The notes: generated from the letters alone by a model not told the origin. A DNA stretch of 64,000 bases from a bacterium (GCA_027624915.1 JAQBTR010000002.1:30802-94801); one strand, 5' to 3'. Shown: positions 6,176 to 57,742, counted from the first letter of the stretch. Numbers and translations are program-made.

Positions 6176-7490
6176 AATCCTAGCAGGTGTATTAACCTTG
6201 TTAGGCCCGGTGCTGTTGTTTTCAGCGTTGGTGTTTTTTGCTCACGCACAGTCTCTTTCACAGCAGGTAATTGACCATAGAGCCGAACTTAAGCGACGTC
6301 TTGATGGTATAGAGACGGAGATTGGTGGGTGGCAAAAACTTATTACAGAGAAACAAAACGAAGCTGAAAGTTTTGAACGAGATATAGCAATTTTGGATGC
6401 AAAAATCAGTAAGGCAAAATTACAGATTCGAGCTTTTGATATTGAAGTGGAGCGTCTTCAGGGGAGAATAAACGATAAGGAAGGCACCATTGATGAAATT
6501 TTAGCAAAAGTAGAGAGGGAGAAACTTTCGCTTGCAGAGGCATTGCGTAAGATGTGGGAGTATGACGATACGTCAGTAATTGAAGCGATGTTTGCGCATG
6601 ACTCTATTTCAGATTATTTTGGGGATATTGATACTATCGATGTAGTTCAGCGAAGTCTACAGCAATCATTTGAAGAATTATATTCAACAAAAACCCAGGA
6701 GGAGGTTGCGCGTGACCAATATGTTGGGCAACGTACAGAGGCACAAGAATTAAGGTATGTCCAGGAACTTGAACGTCAAGATTTACAAAAAAATGAAAAC
6801 GAACGACAATCTTTATTGGATGCGACACGAGGCAAAGAGTCAGAATATACAAAGATTAAAAATCGTAGGCAACAAGATGCCGCCGCCATTAGGAGTCAAC
6901 TTTTCTTGTTGCAAGGTTCTCCTGCGATTCCTTTTGAGAGAGCAGTAGCATTGGCTGAAAGAGCATCTCAAAAGACTGGAGTTCGTGTGGCATTTGCCCT
7001 TGGTATAATTGCACAAGAATCAGAACTTGGTAAAAATATAGGACAGTGTAACTTGCCTGAGGACCCACCAAAATATAAGTGGTATAATATCATGAAGCCA
7101 ACCCGGGATAAGGAGCCATATCTAGCTATTACAAGTAGTCTCGGTCTCGATCCAGATCTAATGCCGCTTTCGTGTCCACTGTCTGTTGGTTGGGGAGGTG
7201 CGATGGGTCCTGCGCAATTTATCCCCTCTACTTGGATTTTATATGTCGACCGTATTGGTAGAGCAACAGGTCATGTTCCTCCCAACCCGTGGGAGCCAGA
7301 GGACGCATTTATGGCCTCTTCTCTATTTTTGTCTGACTTGGGCGCTGACAAGCGTGACGGTGAGTTTGAGGCGGCAGCTCGCTACTTTGCCGGAGGAAAC
7401 TGGAATGGGTCTCTTGGAAGGACTTATGCAAATCAAGTACTTTCTAAAGTAGAGACGTATCAGCGTCAAATTGATATAATTTCAAGGTGA
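6168..7490 (+). CDS. membrane-anchored coiled-coil protein with C-terminal MltB-like lytic transglycosylase domain
   Basis: N-terminal TM helix, long coiled-coil region, C-terminal GWGGAMGPAQFIPSTW motif typical of MltB-family lytic transglycosylases; start trimmed to in-frame GTG at 6168 (the track ORF from 5922 overlaps rplY). Confidence 0.6.
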   Translation: MNKILAGVLTLLGPVLLFSALVFFAHAQSLSQQVIDHRAELKRRLDGIETEIGGWQKLITEKQNEAESFERDIAILDAKISKAKLQIRAFDIEVERLQGRINDKEGTIDEILAKVEREKLSLAEALRKMWEYDDTSVIEAMFAHDSISDYFGDIDTIDVVQRSLQQSFEELYSTKTQEEVARDQYVGQRTEAQELRYVQELERQDLQKNENERQSLLDATRGKESEYTKIKNRRQQDAAAIRSQLFLLQGSPAIPFERAVALAERASQKTGVRVAFALGIIAQESELGKNIGQCNLPEDPPKYKWYNIMKPTRDKEPYLAITSSLGLDPDLMPLSCPLSVGWGGAMGPAQFIPSTWILYVDRIGRATGHVPPNPWEPEDAFMASSLFLSDLGADKRDGEFEAAARYFAGGNWNGSLGRTYANQVLSKVETYQRQIDIISR

Positions 7491-7569
7491 AGAGGGTACC
7501 CTGGGGTACAAGGTGAAGAGGGTACCCTGGGGTACAAGGTGAAGAGGGTACCCTGGGGTACAAGGTGAA
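7484..7569. repeat. tandem direct repeat, 26-bp unit x3.3 (aaggtgaagagggtaccctggggtac), each unit with the palindrome GGGTACCC
   Basis: three perfect contiguous copies plus a partial one read directly from the sequence; overlaps the stop codon of the upstream gene. Confidence 0.85.
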
Positions 7570-11390: not shown

Positions 11391-11465
11391 GCCAGTATAG
11401 CTCAGTGGTAGAGCAATGCTTTTGTAAAGCATAGGTCGTGGGTTCGAATCCCTCTGCTGGCTCCA
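11391..11465 (+). tRNA. tRNA-Thr (anticodon TGT), CCA encoded
   Basis: cloverleaf folded by hand: acceptor gccagta/tgctggc, anticodon loop tttgtaa, T-loop ttcgaat. Confidence 0.85.
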
Positions 11466-11466
11466 A

Positions 11467-11565
11467 GTTTGAAAAACAATTTCAAGTGAGAGGGATGAGA
11501 ACAGAGTGCTGTTAGCACTCTGCGGGGTTTGTGATAGGCAAACCGAATCCCTCTGCTGGCTCCAA
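11467..11565 (+). repeat. tRNA-downstream structured element ending in a 22-nt copy of the tRNA-Thr 3' end (cgaatccctctgctggctccaa)
   Basis: hairpin agagtgc-tgtta-gcactct, then a hairpin with loop tgatagg, then an exact duplicate of the tRNA 3' end; homologous to the element at 32838-32918. Confidence 0.55.
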
Positions 11566-11606
11566 ATAATAATACGCGGTTTTGTGTCGCGTATTATTAT
11601 TTTTGT
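11566..11606 (+). terminator. rho-independent terminator
   Basis: aataataatacgcg-gttttgtgt-cgcgtattattatt followed by a T-run. Confidence 0.65.
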
Positions 11607-17751: not shown

Positions 17752-18972
17752 ATGGAAGACCTCAATAAATCACAACTTGTACTACTTTTTATTCTTGTAA
17801 GCGTTGTTGTCTCATTTACAACGGCTATTGTGACCGCAGCACTTTATGAACAAGCACCAGTTACCTCAATTGGACAGACAATACAGAGGGTTGTAGAAAG
17901 GGTGGTACCCATTGAGAAAGATAACACCAAAATAGTGTCCGAGGAGGATAAGATAGTACGGGTTGTAGAGGAGGTATCTCCGGCTGTAGTCAGTATTATT
18001 GCCTCAAAGGATCTTCCAGTCCTTGAGCAATGTATGGTGTCTCCATTTGGAGATGGTGACGTATTTCGTCAGTTTTTCCCCGAGCTTTTGGTTCCAAGAC
18101 TCTGTGAACGTGGAACTGAGCACAGACAAGTTTCATCTGGCTCTGGTTTTATTGTTGGGGAGGATGGACTTATAGTTACCAACCGTCACGTAGTAAAAGA
18201 TACAGAAGCTACCTACACAGCAATCCTAAATGACGGTCGCCAGTTTGAGGCGACAATTCTCGCACGAGACCCACTTGAGGATTTGGCACTGCTATCTATA
18301 GATGGAGACGGATTTTCACACTTAACTCTTGGAAATTCTAATGATGTTCGCGCTGGTCAAAGTGTCATTGCCATTGGTAATGCACTTGGAGAATTTAATA
18401 ATACAGTTTCCGTTGGAGTTGTTTCTGGTTTGCGCAGGACCATTGTTGCAGGGGGTGAAGAATTCCGTTCACTCATTCAGACAGATGCCGCTATTAATCC
18501 AGGAAATTCAGGTGGGCCACTTCTTAATCTTTCAGGACAGGTTATAGGTGTTAATACGGCCGTTGCATCAAATGCAGAAAATATTGGTTTTGCTCTACCA
18601 TCACGGATAGTCCAGAAAGATATATACGACTTAGAAAAACATGGTCGCATCGTCTACCCATACTTGGGTGTTAGGTACCGTATTCTGACGAATGAAGTTA
18701 AGGATGAACTTGGCCTACCTGTAAACTATGGAGCACTTATTGTAAGTGGAGAGAGTGGAGAGCAAGCCATATCACCTGGTTCACCGGCAGCCACATCTGG
18801 GATGAAGATTGGTGATATACTATTAGAGATAGCAAGTGAGCGCATCACACGCGATAATCCTCTTGCTGAGATTCTGCAAAAGAAGTCAATAGGTGAGAAT
18901 ATATCAATTAAGCTCCTCCGTGGAGATGAGGAAATAACAATACAACTAGCATTAGGAGAAAGAAAATTTTAA
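17752..18972 (+). CDS. htrA: HtrA/DegP-family serine protease with PDZ domain
   Basis: trypsin-like catalytic triad context (TNRHVV, DLALL, GNSGGPL) plus a C-terminal PDZ-like region; N-terminal TM anchor. Confidence 0.85.
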   Translation: MEDLNKSQLVLLFILVSVVVSFTTAIVTAALYEQAPVTSIGQTIQRVVERVVPIEKDNTKIVSEEDKIVRVVEEVSPAVVSIIASKDLPVLEQCMVSPFGDGDVFRQFFPELLVPRLCERGTEHRQVSSGSGFIVGEDGLIVTNRHVVKDTEATYTAILNDGRQFEATILARDPLEDLALLSIDGDGFSHLTLGNSNDVRAGQSVIAIGNALGEFNNTVSVGVVSGLRRTIVAGGEEFRSLIQTDAAINPGNSGGPLLNLSGQVIGVNTAVASNAENIGFALPSRIVQKDIYDLEKHGRIVYPYLGVRYRILTNEVKDELGLPVNYGALIVSGESGEQAISPGSPAATSGMKIGDILLEIASERITRDNPLAEILQKKSIGENISIKLLRGDEEITIQLALGERKF

Positions 18973-19104
18973 TTCACCCGCCAAAACTTTTAAGAATAAA
19001 AGGTCAACATGAAAACACATATTAACCAAACAATCAGAATTGCACACAAAGCAGAACAATGTAATACTGCGCTTTTAGCGATTCTTAAAAGTTTAGAAGG
19101 GTAA

Positions 19105-21819
19105 ATGCCACCATTTGGAAATAACAACGGTAATCATAGTAACCCATTCAACAACTTCACCATTAAGGCGCAGGAGTCACTTAAACGTGCTCATGATTTG
19201 GCGATTGAACGAGGACAGTCCTCTTTGGGCGCGCTACATCTTTTAGCATCTCTTTTGTTGCAAGAAGAAGGTGTGATTAGTGCCGTATTAGAACGTCTTG
19301 AGATAGATTATATTCAGTTTTCTGATATAGTTTTGGATATTTTGGACGAGCGCAAGGGGACATTCGTTTTAACACCAAATCAGCAGTTTTATCTTACTCC
19401 AGAACTTGCACGAATTATTGAAGCTGCACACAAGTCAGCTAACTTCTTGAAGGATGAATATATTTCAACAGAGCACTTGTTCCTCGGTCTCTTGGAGGTT
19501 CCATCAAAGGCAAAGGAGATTCTTGAAAAGTTTAAAATTGAACGCGAGGATGTATTAAAAGCTCTTCAATCAATTCGTGGTGCGCAACATGTAACTGATG
19601 AAAATCCAGAAGCTAAGTATCAGGTTCTTGAGAAGTATGCACGCAACCTAACTGATATGGCGCGCGAGGATAAGCTTGACCCCGTTATTGGAAGAGACGA
19701 AGAAATTCGACGCGTTGTGCAGGTTCTTTCTCGCCGAACCAAAAATAATCCAGTGCTTATAGGTGAAGCTGGTGTTGGTAAGACGGCCATTGTAGATGCT
19801 ATTGCTCAACGTATTGTTGCTGATGACGTTCCAGAAAGTTTACGTGGCAAAGAAGTCGTCTCATTGGATCTTGGTTCACTTGTTGCAGGTACAAAATATC
19901 GAGGTGAATTTGAAGAGCGACTCAAGGCAGTCATGAAAGAAATTCAACGATCCAATGGGCAAATTCTTTTGTTTATTGATGAGTTACATACTCTTGTTGG
20001 CGCGGGGGCGGCGGAAGGTGCAATGGATGCTTCAAACATGTTGAAACCAGCTCTTTCACGTGGTGAACTTCGAGTTGTTGGCGCCACTACCTTAAAGGAG
20101 TATCAAAAGTATATTGAAAAAGATCCAGCGCTCACGCGTCGGTTTCAGCCGGTGTATGTTGAAGAGCCAGCCGTTGAGGATGCGATTGCAATTCTTCGTG
20201 GTCTCAAGGAAAAATATGAACTTCATCATGGAATAAAAATTACCGATTCTGCTATTCGATATTCTGTAGAACTTTCACGACGGTATATCACAGATCGGTT
20301 TTTGCCAGATAAAGCTGTAGATCTCATGGATGAGGCGGCAAGTAGTTTGCGGTTGGATCTTGAAAGTATGCCAACAGATCTTGAGAGTGTGCGACGCAAT
20401 ATCATGAGACTTGAGATTGAAAAAGAAGCGATGAAAAAAGATGGTAAGTCTAATCGCTCAATGTCTAAGCTTAATAAAGAACTTGAAACTCTCAAGGAAG
20501 AGTGTGAGAGTTTGGAAGAAAAGTGGACAAATGAAAAGGAAACCATTATGCGTATTCGCGAAATAGGCAAGGATTTAGAACGGTTACGACAAGAATCTGA
20601 TACTGCGGAACGAGACGCCGATTATAGTAAGGTGGCGGAGATTCGTTACGGTCGTATTCCGACTCTTTCTCAGTCTTTGGATGGTGAAGAAAAACGACTT
20701 AAAAAACTTCAGAATGATCGTCGTATGATTAAAGAAGAGGTTGGTCCAGAAGAGATTGCACGAGTTGTTCAGCGATGGACTGGCATTCCTGTTGAACGAA
20801 TGCTTGAAGAAGAGTCAGCAAAGCTGATGGCAATGGAGGACGAGCTCAAAAAACGAGTTGTGGGTCAGGACGCAGCAATCAAAGAAATCTCAAGTGCAAT
20901 AAGGCGCTCTCGAGCTGGTATAAGCGAAGAAGATCGACCTATCGGCTCATTTATGTTTTTGGGCCCAACCGGTGTAGGTAAAACTGAACTAGCACGCACA
21001 TTGGCAGGTTTTCTATTTAACGATGAGAAATCACTTGTACATATTGATATGTCCGAGTACATGGAAAAACATTCTGTTTCTAAATTTATTGGTTCACCAC
21101 CAGGATATGTTGGACACGATGAAGGAGGACAGTTAACGGAAACCGTGCGACATCGACCATATTCGGTTTTGCTTTTTGACGAGATTGAAAAAGCACATCC
21201 AGAAGTATTTAATATAATGCTTCAAATTCTTGATAATGGACGATTGACCGATGCCAAAGGACGTCACGTAAACTTCAAAAATACAATAATAATCATGACT
21301 TCAAACATTGGTTCTGAACTTGTTTTTGAAATGGGCAAGGTTGGTTTTCAATTGCTCGAGGAAGACGCTGACCATAAGACAAAACAAACAGAACTTCAGG
21401 ATAAAATTCGTAAAGCACTTGAGCAACGATTTCGACCTGAGTTTTTAAACCGACTTGATGGAGTCGTGGTCTTTAATTCTCTTGGTGCGAGTGAGCTAAC
21501 ACATATTGTTGATATACAGATCGAACGTGTTCGTACAAGACTTGAGAAAAAAGGTATCTCTCTCTCACTGACCACACAGGCAAAAGAGCTTTTGGTTAAG
21601 CAGGGGAATAATAAGTTTTATGGCGCACGACCACTGAAGCGGACCATCCAAAAAGAGCTCTTAAATCCCTTGGCAGAAATGCTTGTCAGTGGTAAGATGC
21701 GTGATGGCGCTACGATTACCATCGGTGTGCTTGATGGTAAATTCGTTTTTAAAACAAAACCAGCACGTAAAGTTGTATCACGTACAAAGACAAAGAAGCG
21801 TGTGATAAGCGCCAAATAA
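19105..21819 (+). CDS. clpB: ATP-dependent chaperone ClpB
   Basis: two AAA+ modules ([16 protein letters not shown] Walker A) with a long coiled-coil middle domain. Confidence 0.9.
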
Positions 21820-21823
21820 ACGC

Positions 21824-21844
21824 GCGAGTGGCGGGGTGGAAATC
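21824..21844 (+). repeat. partial duplicate of the 5' part of tRNA-Tyr
   Basis: gcgagtggcggggtggaaatc matches the tRNA-Tyr 5' region gcgagtggcggagtggacaatc (20/22). Confidence 0.5.
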
Positions 21845-23675: not shown

Positions 23676-23790
23676 GGGGGTATAAGCTCAATGGGTTTAA
23701 GCTCCGGGGGAGCTTTAACGGGAAATGTAGTGAGTTTACGAACGTAAAGCATTTCCCCAGGTCGCGTGATAGGCGCGACCTGCTGGTCAT
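23676..23790 (+). ncRNA. candidate structured RNA element 5' of tRNA-Trp (copy 1 of a two-member family)
   Basis: three consecutive hairpins; homologous to 32545-32660 with a compensatory change in hairpin 1, a shared core acgggaaat..atttcc, and the hairpin ggtcgcg-tgatRgg-cgcgac. Confidence 0.4.
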
Positions 23791-31866: not shown

Positions 31867-32427
31867 TCACTGGTGTTCCCGTTTTATCTGGGCACGCATG
31901 CGTGCCATGATTCTTTGACTTGTTTTTTGGCCCTCTGCGTCTGTTTTTTGTGGGTAACGGATAGCTATATAGTTGACCAACAAAGAATCAAGCAGCTCAT
32001 CATCTGATGAATGTTTAAGGGGATTCAAGATGATGGTGTGTCTAAGAAGGTCGTACGTGGCCTCGCCTTTATAATCTCTCATGCAAATCACTCTAAAGTT
32101 GTTTCGAATAAGAAATTTCAATTGTGGGACCGCATTCTCTAGTGAGAGTGTATCCCACCAAAACTCACCATCCTGTGCCATAATGCGCTGAACTCCTTTT
32201 TTGATTGGCTTATGGTTACATCGCCATCCAGGATGTATGACATGAAGATACTCATGAATGAATGTATCCCACATTTCTTCAGAATTGCTGTGTTTCCTCG
32301 GGTCAATGATTACTGTTTTAGTATCTTCATCACAGAGACCCCATGCATGACCACCATTTTTTTCAGGGTACAGTTTGTCGTATTCTACAGACCATCCTTT
32401 GTTCATCAGCGCTTGAAGGCGCTTCAT
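31867..32427 (-). CDS. SprT-like (HExxH) zinc metalloprotease domain protein
   Basis: GLCDEDTKTVIID...FIHEYLHVIH matches the SprT-like/WLM pattern; start set at ATG 32427 with a GGGAGG RBS, the track ORF is longer. Confidence 0.55.
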   Translation of the reverse strand: MKRLQALMNKGWSVEYDKLYPEKNGGHAWGLCDEDTKTVIIDPRKHSNSEEMWDTFIHEYLHVIHPGWRCNHKPIKKGVQRIMAQDGEFWWDTLSLENAVPQLKFLIRNNFRVICMRDYKGEATYDLLRHTIILNPLKHSSDDELLDSLLVNYIAIRYPQKTDAEGQKTSQRIMARMRAQIKREHQ

Positions 32428-32544
32428 AACAGGCCTCCCTTGGCTTTTACAGTCTATACATATGCAAACATATTTTCTTTGCTTATCCAAGGGGTAGAAA
32501 TGCATAACTATTTGTGTTATAGTTGGCGCTACAATAAAAAATAG

Positions 32545-32660
32545 GGAGGAGTGGCTGAGTGGGTCACAGGTCTGGGAGAGCTGTGACGGGAAATATAGCG
32601 AGCTTGTCGAGCGTATAGTATTTCCTCGGGTCGCGTGATGGGCGCGACGACTAGCGCACA
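32545..32660 (+). ncRNA. candidate structured RNA element 5' of tRNA-Ser (copy 2 of the family); begins with an 18-nt duplicate of the tRNA-Ser 5' end
   Basis: ggaggagtggctgagtgg is identical to the tRNA-Ser start; then hairpin gtcacag...ctgtgac, core acgggaaatatag...tatttcc, hairpin gggtcgcg-tgatggg-cgcgac. Confidence 0.4.
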
Positions 32661-32701
32661 AAGTACGTAATGCTTTTCCGGAACAATTTAGATATACATA
32701 T

Positions 32702-32788
32702 GGAGGAGTGGCTGAGTGGTTGAAGGCGGCAGTCTTGAAAACTGTTAAGGGTGAAAGCCCTTCGTGAGTTCGAATCTCACCTCCTCCG
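32702..32788 (+). tRNA. tRNA-Ser (anticodon TGA), type II, CCA not encoded
   Basis: acceptor ggaggag/ctcctcc, anticodon loop cttgaaa, variable-arm hairpin aagggtgaaagcccttc. Confidence 0.85.
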
Positions 32789-32795
32789 CATCAAA

Positions 32796-32830
32796 ACAAA
32801 TGGGATACCTTGCGTATCCTTTTTTTGTTT
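32796..32830 (+). terminator. rho-independent terminator after tRNA-Ser
   Basis: tgggatac-cttgc-gtatcc + ttttttt. Confidence 0.55.
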
Positions 32831-32837
32831 TGAGATA

Positions 32838-32918
32838 GGGAAGGGATTCGAACCGGAATGCTAAACGCATTCCGCGGGTTGTCTGATAAGAGGCAACCGA
32901 ATCCCACCTTCTCCGCCA
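32838..32918 (+). repeat. tRNA-downstream structured element (copy 2 of the family seen at 11467-11565) ending in a tRNA 3'-end-like ...ccgaatcccaccttctccgcca
   Basis: hairpin ggaatgc-taaac-gcattcc, then gcgggttgtc-tgataag-aggcaacc, then gaatccc + acceptor-like 3' strand + CCA; parallel architecture to 11503-11565. Confidence 0.5.
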
Positions 32919-51303: not shown

Positions 51304-51334
51304 TTCAACGGCTCATTTTTGAGCCGTTGAAAAT
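51304..51334. repeat. palindromic repeated element, copy 1 (ttcaacggctca-ttttt-tgagccgttgaaaat), core of a roughly 75-nt repeat
   Basis: near-identical copy at 57712-57742; flanking similarity extends both sides. Confidence 0.7.
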
Positions 51335-57160: not shown

Positions 57161-57217
57161 GGATAGTCGGCAACGGTGTTTTCTATCCGCCCATTGCATA
57201 GACGTAGTGAACTTTGT

Positions 57218-57280
57218 CCGCCTGTAGCTCAGTCGGTGGAGGTGAGTCTTCTGGGAGAAGACGAACCACTTTTAAGGGGA
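57218..57280 (+). pseudogene. degenerate tRNA-Lys-like copy (first 22+ nt identical to tRNA-Lys, hairpin inserted between D-arm and anticodon loop)
   Basis: ccgcctgtagctcagtcggtggag + hairpin gtcttct-ggg-agaagac + ccacttttaagggga. Confidence 0.5.
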
Positions 57281-57321
57281 TTTGAAAATTTAATATAAAC
57301 TCGGATTATCGTTAGCAAAGT

Positions 57322-57394
57322 CCGCCTGTAGCTCAGTCGGTAGAGCAGCTCCCTTTTAAGGAGATGGTCGTAGGTTCGATTCCTACCAGGCGGA
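57322..57394 (+). tRNA. tRNA-Lys (anticodon TTT), CCA not encoded
   Basis: acceptor ccgcctg/caggcgg, D-arm gctcagtcggtagagc, anticodon loop cttttaa, T-loop ttcgatt. Confidence 0.8.
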
Positions 57395-57404
57395 CTTTGA
57401 ATGG

Positions 57405-57436
57405 GATAATCCGAGTTCGATTCCTACCAGGCGGAC
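57405..57436 (+). repeat. inverted repeat (gataatccgag, partner ctcggattatc at 57300-57310) followed by a 22-nt duplicate of the tRNA-Lys 3' end
   Basis: gttcgattcctaccaggcggac is identical to the tRNA-Lys T-arm/acceptor 3' region; 11-bp IR brackets the intact tRNA. Confidence 0.55.
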
Positions 57437-57454
57437 AAAATTCAGTACACTAAA

Positions 57455-57533
57455 ACTCAGTCGGTGGAGAATAGGAGACATAGCAGGTCTCCTATTCCAC
57501 TTTTAAGAAGCTAGCCGTAGGTTCAGGGCGGAC
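57455..57533 (+). pseudogene. second degenerate tRNA-Lys-like copy with inserted hairpin
   Basis: actcagtcggtggag + hairpin aataggagac-atagcag-gtctcctatt + ccacttttaagaag...ccgtaggttcagggcggac. Confidence 0.5.
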
Positions 57534-57711: not shown

Positions 57712-57742
57712 TTCAACGGCTCATATATGAGCCGTTGAAAAT
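57712..57742. repeat. palindromic repeated element, copy 2 (ttcaacggctca-tatat-tgagccgttgaaaat)
   Basis: matches 51304-51334 except the loop; flanks also similar. Confidence 0.7.

Follow-up and report, generated by a model that had tools for sequence, protein, structure and literature searches.

Double-hairpin elements joined to second copies of tRNA 3' ends in Patescibacteria: a candidate family of protein-less insertion modules

Patescibacteria have tiny genomes in which each tRNA gene is single-copy and essential, yet tRNA ends are found duplicated; what are these duplicates, and what is the DNA that separates them from the gene? The question is raised by a stretch of 64,000 nucleotides (nt) from a bacterium (GCA_027624915.1, JAQBTR010000002.1:30802-94801; hereafter the window), in which two homologous elements of about 77-80 nt, one downstream of tRNA-Thr(TGT) and one downstream of tRNA-Ser(TGA), each end in a second tRNA 3' end. 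We tentatively interpret them as members of a Patescibacteria-specific family of miniature, protein-less, non-autonomous insertion modules directed at tRNA genes, specifically at the stretch from T loop to 3' end. The unit has a fixed order: complete tRNA; short spacer hairpin or tRNA terminator; antisense T arm; double hairpin (hairpin 1, GNGGG, hairpin 2); second tRNA copy from C56 to the 3' end.

Six tRNA genes are present in the window, called concordantly by ARAGORN and Rfam (Thr-TGT, Tyr, Thr-GGT, Trp, Ser-TGA, and Lys), and tRNA ends are duplicated at five of these six loci. The parts of the Thr unit are given below.

11391 to 11465, plus strand: tRNA-Thr(TGT), complete, CCA encoded; detected by ARAGORN and by Rfam (RF00005, 72 bits); its 3' end is the one repeated.
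11466 to 11488, plus strand: spacer of 22 nt with mini-hairpin TTGAAA/AACAA/TTTCAA (11469-11485), no T-run.
11489 to 11502, plus strand: antisense T-arm segment AGAGGGATGAGAAC; from local alignment with the antisense tRNA and from the minimum free energy (MFE) fold.
11503 to 11521, plus strand: hairpin 1, AGAGTGC/TGTTA/GCACTCT; stem of 7 base pairs (bp), 5-nt loop.
11522 to 11526, plus strand: GCGGG, the conserved GNGGG linker in the alignment; takes the place of the T-stem 5' strand.
11527 to 11543, plus strand: hairpin 2, GTTTG/TGATAGG/CAAAC; 5-bp stem; takes the place of T54-T55 of the T loop.
11544 to 11565, plus strand: copy of the tRNA-Thr 3' end, CGAATCCCTCTGCTGGCTCCAA, from T-loop C56 through CCA plus one A.
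11564 to 11602, plus strand: strong intrinsic terminator, 17-bp stem then T-run; closes the unit of tRNA-Thr and element.

In CGAATCCCTCTGCTGGCTCCAA, positions 55-75 of tRNA-Thr and the next A are repeated without mismatch over 21-22 nt. The description in an earlier note made from the sequence alone (an exact 22-nt copy including CCA, followed by a strong terminator) is thus borne out, and the duplicated tRNA 3' end is genuine. As the terminator is situated only 3' of the element, co-transcription of the element with tRNA-Thr is predicted. The Ser unit has the same parts in the same order, with its own terminator placed differently.

32702 to 32789, plus strand: tRNA-Ser(TGA), complete, without encoded CCA; ARAGORN and Rfam.
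32802 to 32827 (32802 to 32820 in a narrower delimitation), plus strand: tRNA-Ser terminator, between the gene and the downstream element.
32843 to 32918, plus strand: whole Ser downstream element; covariance model R1 (61 bits), fold, and alignment.
32843 to 32854, plus strand: antisense T arm GGGATTCGAACC.
32855 to 32873, plus strand: hairpin 1, 7-bp stem and 5-nt loop.
32874 to 32878, plus strand: GCGGG linker.
32879 to 32897, plus strand: hairpin 2, loop TGATAAG.
32898 to 32918, plus strand: 3' stub CGAATCCCACCTTCTCCGCCA, composed of CGAATCCCAC, CTTCTCC, G, and CCA.

Homology and common order of the two elements, both claimed in the earlier note, hold: antisense T arm of the local tRNA, hairpin 1, GCGGG, hairpin 2 (loop TGATARG), then CGAATCCC, acceptor 3' strand, and NCCA. 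Likeness between the two copies is about 60%. Likeness of the Ser copy to the 3' end of its tRNA also stands (17 of 20 positions agree), identity does not: the stub has a terminal CCA, the gene has none, and the element sits 3' of the tRNA's own terminator. Two occurrences of the joint pattern GCGGG..TGATRRG..GAAT were counted in the window and none in 100 shuffles, and perfect 5-bp hairpins with a TGAT[A/G]GG loop are confined, within the window, to these tRNA loci. A generic terminator shared by unrelated loci, which the earlier note had named as an alternative, does not fit: neither hairpin 1 nor hairpin 2 precedes a T-run, and the real terminators (11564-11602, 32802-32827) are separate features. 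In a second public assembly of the same population, the Thr and Ser loci both read identically to the window; extension of the contig by 8-10 kb on each side of the window yielded no additional tRNA or element.

On its 5' side, each element repeats the T arm in antisense orientation, a feature not mentioned in the earlier note. This copy is 9-14 nt long and is the only tRNA-derived part of the insert, as found by local alignment, in sense and antisense, with the neighbouring tRNA. AGAGGGATGAGAAC agrees with the reverse complement of tRNA-Thr, GTTCGAATCCCTCT, at 12 of 14 positions (p~0.005 by shuffling), and the match to the local tRNA has p<=0.035 in all six elements tested. Behind the tRNA-Gly of a related contig (L057), the segment reads GGGGAGGCGAACC, following the unusual T loop TTCGACT of that tRNA. 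The antisense segment pairs with the CGAATCCC of the stub. An element of upstream type on the opposite strand, or a pseudo-tRNA on the minus strand, was considered and rejected, because the exact repeat and the TGAKRRG loops lie on the tRNA strand and the T arm alone is antisense. The intervening DNA is no random remnant: its architecture is conserved and covarying, with an antisense T arm tuned to the local tRNA.

The MFE fold is a three-way junction (P1, hairpin 1, hairpin 2) that leaves the acceptor strand and NCCA single-stranded; in the Thr element, the closing helix P1 is formed by the 11489-11502 segment paired with 11546-11555. A functional structured RNA could take this form: a tRNA trailer or read-through transcript folding as a three-way junction, closed by P1 (antisense T arm with CGAAUCCC) and ending in a free NCCA tail, that imitates a tRNA, perhaps as a decoy, or that assists in processing or stabilising the tRNA beside it (e.g., toward RNase P/Z, the CCA-adding enzyme, or a tRNA-targeting toxin). 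We consider this unlikely. Fold stability relative to shuffles speaks for it in the Thr (z = -3.4), Ser (z = -4.8), and L118 (z = -2.95) elements and against it in the L003 element, the fold of which is no better than shuffles (z = -1.6). The hairpin-2 loop TGAKRRG is strand-specific and common to the downstream elements and to a family of elements upstream of tRNAs, as an RNA would have it; the acceptor 3' strand, by contrast, has no 5' partner in cis, so that no tRNA-like acceptor helix can form. Also adverse is the lack of any Rfam match to the window elements, even at E<=10; ARAGORN too returned only the six genuine tRNAs. By these results, and without a paired acceptor, the elements do not qualify as tRNA or tRNA-like RNA (RF00005 clan, tmRNA, YrlA, mascRNA, t-elements). 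With Rfam at gathering and permissive thresholds, genuine tRNAs only were obtained from the window and from L003, and hammerheads, other ribozymes, and group I introns were rejected for this reason; a group I intron within the tRNA was likewise rejected, the tRNAs being uninterrupted and no intron model matching. The GNGGG linker (followed by TT in some members, e.g., Ser and the second tRNA-Leu element described below) and the CGAAT after hairpin 2 resemble a T arm; if they are taken as one, hairpin 2 looks like an insertion at TT|CGAA. Actual T-stem pairing of GNGGG with CCCNC was rejected, as the second position is mismatched in every member and the remaining pairs are invariant.

The window itself is part of a metagenome-assembled genome (MAG) of the Patescibacteria (candidate phyla radiation, CPR), with 41.6% G+C over 64 kb. 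The protein encoded beside the finding has its closest homologues (50-57% identity) in Parcubacteria, Ryanbacteria, and other 'Patescibacteria group' bacteria, and is 100% identical to a protein recorded for an uncultured bacterium. Relatives were reached via this neighbouring protein (contigs L001, L003, and L004) and by two pattern scans, one of genome contigs (86 matches, one true member, L057) and one of metagenome contigs (103 matches, about eight distinct true members). The other matches of the former fell to chance, to haloarchaeal palindromes, and to class II tRNAs of actinomycetes in antisense; those of the latter were mostly antisense tRNA-Gln genes of CPR contigs or chance. A search for further copies in other genomes, which the earlier note had proposed, was thus fruitful: 10-11 family members came from other Patescibacteria, Parcubacteria-like and Saccharimonadales, on at least five contigs, with nine to ten of them keeping the order of parts. 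They follow genes for tRNA-Tyr, Gly, Leu, Val, and Ser, all on the strand of the tRNA and 21-151 nt downstream of it. The members and two less typical groups are as follows.

L003/L004/L114: behind tRNA-Tyr.
L057/L128/L201 (Patescibacteria MAG): behind tRNA-Gly, and two in series behind tRNA-Leu.
L118: behind tRNA-Tyr.
L135/L157: behind tRNA-Val.
L147 (Saccharimonadales): behind tRNA-Ser(CGA).
L106: behind tRNA-Gln, a variant.
L167 and five others (human-gut contigs): behind tRNA-Arg, weakly similar.

Because L147 belongs to the Saccharimonadales, the family spans at least two classes of Patescibacteria. Covariance model R1 recovers all members at 50-89 bits and, over about 0.56 Mb, finds nothing beyond the known members except the gut group. 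Two classes of member are distinguished. Class A (window Thr, L003-Tyr, L057-Gly, and the first L057-Leu element) has a 21-26-nt spacer with a mini-hairpin, no spacer terminator, and an exact 17-21-nt repeat; class B has a spacer of 44-151 nt containing a terminator-like hairpin and T-run, and its stubs are exact (L147, 21 nt), diverged (window Ser), interrupted (second Leu element), or provided with a different acceptor (L118, L135, L167). Exact direct repeats of 17-21 nt are present in L003, L057, and L147.

Pairing across nine aligned members extends to 82% of cells, compared with 67% in shuffles, and the observed value was reached in 0 of 500 shuffles. Fourteen pairs show changes on both sides, every slid control giving far lower counts; such changes affect seven of the 10 pairs of hairpin 1 and four of the five pairs of hairpin 2. 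In five members from different genomes, hairpin 1 takes a long form whose 13-nt loop is conserved; this loop, G-S-C-A-N-N-G-S-T-T-Y-R-A, includes a sense T-loop-like GGTTCRA and one covarying G:C/C:G pair. A structured RNA would account for the covarying helices, for this conserved loop, for the constant strand and short distance to the tRNA, and for co-transcription in the Thr unit; DNA-level hairpins involved in mobility would covary too. Its position is weaker where transcription is concerned: a terminator-like hairpin and T-run separate the tRNA from the element in six of 10 members, and upstream of the Ser downstream copy no promoter-like site was found. The tRNA-mimicking small RNA among the earlier suggestions is weakened by this separation and by the missing Rfam match, and is retained at the low probability already expressed.

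The gut group is set apart. In L167 (781-870), from a human-gut bacterium, the element follows the terminator of tRNA-Arg(CCG), reads AAGGGATTCGAAC...CGAATCCCTT followed by TGGGCGC and ACCA, and has its own terminator; it is conserved across six metagenome contigs (L167, L132, L146, L153, L189, L198) and is weakly like the family (R1, E=0.006). In L198, the upstream tRNA-Arg is truncated or split by an inserted element. In the haloarchaeal palindromes met in the genome scan, about 70 nt long, a tRNA 3' half in antisense (TGG..acceptor..GGATTCGAACC) stands opposite a T arm in sense orientation (GGTTCGAATCC...); these palindromes are conserved in many genera and were found in L006, L008, L012, L029, L048, L052, L066-L068, L074, and about 20 more.

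Do the elements come and go? The orthologue of tRNA-Thr(TGT) in L001 and L003, located after tsf and a small open reading frame (ORF), has no element; tRNA-Ser(TGA) in L114 has neither an upstream nor a downstream element; and in L205, a relative of L147 (88% ValRS identity), the 3' end of tRNA-Ser(CGA) directly abuts unrelated intergenic DNA. The comparison of tRNA loci among relatives, also proposed earlier, therefore gave polymorphism, and the elements are dispensable, a further point against an RNA function. At the tRNA-Leu of L057, a young copy with a 20-nt exact repeat adjoins the gene, and an older, decayed and interrupted copy lies farther off; such tandem accretion is expected if each event regenerates the target. 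Absence in relatives together with serial stacking is insertion-like behaviour with regeneration of the target.

A direct repeat of the tRNA 3' end with its start in the T loop is what textbooks give as the mark of tRNA-targeting integrases, the site classes of which were reportedly described by Williams in 2002. Integrating elements commonly leave tRNA gene fragments (10.1101/2022.07.05.498093). The elements could accordingly be classical integration scars, in which kb-size tyrosine or serine integrase elements in tRNA 3' ends were internally deleted, leaving attL (the tRNA), a short remnant with an attP arm, and attR (the stub). The repeats from the T loop onward, the accretion at tRNA-Leu, and the presence/absence polymorphism are all as such scars would have them; the long form holds several T-arm-like sequences in both orientations, which are possible recombinase-binding sites; and the split tRNA-Arg of L198 is a genuine case. 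We nevertheless hold this origin to be rather improbable. An integrase was found at none of about 11 loci in at least six genomes; independent deletions are unlikely to give the same boundaries, the 21-26-nt spacer, and the four-part architecture behind six tRNA species; and the 5' segment tracks the local T arm, unlike what is expected of a decaying attP arm. Of the integration-scar idea in the earlier note, the insertion-like attL/attR-type behaviour is upheld by the wide family, the absence in relatives, and the stacking, and the link to an integrase is not: no integrase-bearing full-length element between such repeats was found in the genomes and contigs examined. The gene tables of L001-L004 list no recombinase, and the insert (77-100 nt) is non-coding, without integrase or other gene. 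The ORFs flanking the five window tRNA loci tested are housekeeping genes or have no Pfam match (Tsf, an NADH-dehydrogenase-like protein, helix-turn-helix proteins, and others). Viral contigs, phage records, and plasmid records gave no match to the elements, and a literature search gave no description of them.

The double hairpin is also used on the other side of tRNA genes. Two upstream-family elements of the window are relevant here.

23676 to 23790, plus strand: upstream-family element before tRNA-Trp; tRNA-like 5' end, hairpin A, double hairpin (loop TGATAGG).
32545 to 32660, plus strand: upstream-family element before tRNA-Ser; 18-nt exact copy of the tRNA-Ser 5' end, hairpin A (GGG loop), double-hairpin module.

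As the earlier note had it, the TGATRGG loop motif recurs in these elements, in hairpins at 23761 and 32630. The upstream hairpin pair aligns with downstream hairpins 1 and 2 at 69% mean column identity, so that the same double-hairpin module is joined to tRNA 5' copies upstream and to 3' copies downstream. In the Ser upstream element, the module consists of a long hairpin and GTCGCG/TGATGGG/CGCGAC, and the element starts just 3' of a promoter-like site (32495-32523). The Trp upstream element has a tail, CTGCTGGTCA, that resembles the tRNA-Thr acceptor 3' strand, and a homologous element stands before tRNA-Trp at the syntenic site of L001. The 5' 20 nt of this element are identical at 20/21 between window and L001, where orthologous proteins are about 52% identical, a degree of conservation that would suit an RNA.

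At the tRNA-Trp locus of L001 (20848-21105), an upstream GGGGGCA is exactly complementary to TGCCCCC in a 3' fragment downstream of the functional gene, and the 8-mer GGTCTCCA is present at both junctions; because the flanking acceptor strands match, the functional tRNA-Trp is nested between the halves of a pseudo-tRNA. In the close relative L003, this site is occupied by a tRNA-Trp of another sequence type and GGGGGCA alone remains upstream, a difference that implies serial gene replacement. The tRNA-Lys locus of the window (57216-57530) is nested likewise and begins with a 20-nt exact 5' copy that has an inserted hairpin and a retained CTTTTAA loop, followed by the real tRNA-Lys; 3' of the gene are a 22-nt exact T-loop-to-3'-end copy (57415-57436) and a third, degenerate copy with a different inserted hairpin (57450-57530). 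Complementary 11-nt strands, CTCGGATTATC and GATAATCCGAG, flank the real gene, like the leader pairing of split tRNAs. At 21824-21834, 35 nt upstream of tRNA-Tyr, lies an 11-nt copy of the tRNA-Tyr 5' end (GCGAGTGGCGG), probably the last remnant of an upstream element or of a cassette with a GIY-YIG gene as at the syntenic L003 locus. An ORF of 264 amino acids (aa) on the minus strand (31867-32661), without Pfam match, covers the whole tRNA-Ser upstream element; this ORF is probably extended too far at its 5' end, and if there is a real gene here, it starts further in.

With so much tRNA debris in the window, the Lys copies and the tRNA-Tyr fragment included, the elements might themselves be neutral debris: decayed local tandem duplications of tRNAs, neither mobile nor functional, with hairpins arisen by template-switch 'perfection' of quasi-palindromes in pseudo-tRNA arms. 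The entire downstream element can also be laid out as a single long, imperfect palindrome, and perfect GC hairpins that replace the anticodon loop in pseudo 5' halves beside GIY-YIG genes resemble palindrome perfection. Hairpins 1 and 2, on the other hand, are not tRNA-derived, yet they are homologous across tRNAs and genomes, with conserved loops and linker; convergence through independent decay is not expected, exact 17-21-nt repeats stand beside highly diverged hairpins, and the homology of the module across tRNA species, which runs counter to debris, was largely found. This explanation is the least credible of those considered and is thought very unlikely.

The interpretation as insertion modules draws on the anatomy, the homology across tRNAs and genomes, the hairpin covariation, the antisense tuning, the exact 17-22-nt repeats, the presence/absence, the stacking, and the module held in common with the upstream elements. 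From these we infer a mechanism of insertion and a role of the antisense arm. The module would enter at the T loop, via recombination or staggered-cut insertion; entry would duplicate the last ~20 nt of the tRNA or supply a replacement copy, so that the tRNA would stay functional and the other copy would remain as an attR-like stub. By folding against the CGAATCCC of that stub, the antisense T arm would recreate the duplex of the target site, and this duplex could be a target mimic, or a recognition segment for some enzyme acting in trans.

Several observations weigh against insertion modules. Copy number is low, with two copies in about 78 kb of this genome, and these are diverged (about 60% alike), so that recent mobility is not demonstrated; we infer that the window copies are old and immobile. 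The surroundings of the window copies contain no recombinase, transposase, or GIY-YIG gene, and no autonomous full-length element was found in any sequence searched. The intergenic DNA of L147 and L205 is otherwise unalignable, and no near-identical genome pair with clean empty-site boundaries was obtained. The acceptor strand is unlike that of the neighbouring tRNA in four of 10 members. In the Ser stub, the T stem is CCCAC, compared with CTCAC in the resident tRNA-Ser, and because of this difference the stub may be foreign instead of displaced. The conserved 13-nt loop of long-form hairpin 1, with its covarying G:C/C:G pair, is equally compatible with RNA function.

Is there an enzyme that could act in trans? 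In several relatives, a GIY-YIG ORF of about 80 aa (79-93 aa) has the pseudo 5' part of a tRNA on one side and the complete tRNA on the other.

L003 (with L004), 18647-19230: GIY-YIG ORF at the tRNA-Tyr locus.
L091, 2920-3320: GIY-YIG ORF at tRNA-Tyr.
L094, 2870-3314: GIY-YIG ORF at tRNA-Trp.
L138, 1455-2160, minus strand: GIY-YIG ORFs at tRNA-Gln, two tandem units, the ORF beginning directly after the T-loop bases TTCGAA.

The pseudo 5' parts in L003, L091, and L138 have a GC hairpin in place of the anticodon loop, and L128 has one more GIY-YIG ORF, situated upstream of tRNA-Cys at a distance of a few hundred bases. No description of GIY-YIG genes in such a setting, flanked by a pseudo part and the whole tRNA, was found in the literature. 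By their sequence arrangement, these cassettes show a second kind of selfish DNA that invades tRNA genes in the phylum, with rescue by partial duplication. As a general cause of the downstream elements they were rejected, because a tRNA is shared with a downstream element in one case of 10 (L003), and we regard the two as akin in logic only; in the window, tblastn with 32 GIY-YIG proteins gave none. More speculatively, the elements could represent a new class of tRNA-gene-targeting module, in which an antisense T arm reprogrammed for each tRNA and a double hairpin form a recognition device, be it a folded single-strand target mimic or a guide RNA for a trans-acting enzyme, with the small 80-aa GIY-YIG nucleases of relatives as one candidate enzyme and insertion made harmless by the duplicated tRNA end; or the folded RNA could be a new tRNA-mimic regulator of Patescibacteria. 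Such novelty we regard as doubtful.

Parallels exist with several known systems. Integrative elements that target tRNAs (prophages, integrative and conjugative elements, genomic islands) give attL/attR 3'-end duplications and tandem accretion, e.g., the ssrA islands of Dehalococcoides (PMC3146451). The elements have in common with these the direct repeat from T loop to 3' end, the regenerated tRNA, the downstream stub, the stacking, and the presence/absence; they differ in the insert of about 55-100 nt without integrase or gene, the covarying double hairpin, the target-tuned antisense T arm, and the use of the same module with tRNA 5' copies upstream of tRNAs. GC-rich palindromes and double hairpins of organelles include the PstI palindromes that flank tRNA genes in Neurospora mitochondria, the double-hairpin elements of Allomyces, and the repetitive hairpin elements of sponges (PMC2800124). 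Likenesses are the small GC-rich (double) hairpins of conserved structure, set in a compact AT-rich genome and clustered beside tRNA genes and at the borders of duplicated gene fragments; in both, mobility is suspected and no enzyme is known. The organelle elements have high copy number and no fused tRNA end, whereas those described here are bacterial, of low copy number, and joined to sense and antisense T-arm sequence.

Recombination sites that fold into hairpins and mimic their target are known from attP(+) of the CTX phage, used by XerCD, and from attC of integrons. Like these, the elements have two inverted target-like copies around a structured spacer, and a single strand could fold to a target-like duplex; the order R''(...AAC)-stem-loop-stem-R'(GTT...) would resemble the TTCGAAC...GTT|CGAA of the elements. 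The likeness is structural only, as no Xer- or IntI-type recombinase, cassette array, or single-stranded DNA replicon is associated. In phage T4, SegB is a GIY-YIG homing endonuclease in a tRNA cluster (PMC2330249), and Patescibacteria tRNA genes carry group I introns in the anticodon loop (PMC13011429). These too are selfish DNA in tRNA loci, the latter in the same phylum, in which the GIY-YIG cassettes of L003, L091, L094, and L138 rescue the tRNA through partial duplication; in contrast, the window has no GIY-YIG gene, the elements lie outside the tRNA, and no Rfam intron matches. Compared with miniature inverted-repeat transposable elements, an inverted repeat (antisense T arm and CGAATCCC) is present, with its right arm in the tRNA stub, and the 17-22-nt duplication is far longer than usual; many near-identical copies, unlike in such elements, were not seen, R1 finding no more than the two diverged ones. 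The elements have no integrase, high copy number, cloverleaf, intron, or ORF, and fail the defining test of each family compared.

Two further repeats of the window are recorded. A perfect 26-nt tandem repeat (CAAGGTGAAGAGGGTACCCTGGGGTA...) lies at 7483-7569, and the alignment of the second assembly to the window breaks there, which suggests a difference in copy number. A 31-nt hairpin, TTCAACGGCTCAT(T/A)T(T/A)TGAGCCGTTGAAAAT, occurs at 51304-51334 and 57712-57742 with 94% identity between the sites; the pair may be a common terminator or a small repeat element.

What would the elements mean for their hosts? If they are mobile, they would represent a route to colonise essential genes without an intron or an integrase of their own, would mark tRNA loci as hotspots of genome turnover in the phylum, and would account for broken contigs and for false calls of partial tRNAs in CPR MAGs; with the covariance model there is a handle for locating the enzyme responsible. 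If they act as RNA, a phylum for which few regulators are known would gain a new structured RNA linked to tRNAs. Their importance would be greater should the antisense arm be programmable as a means of recognition, or should the RNA have a function.

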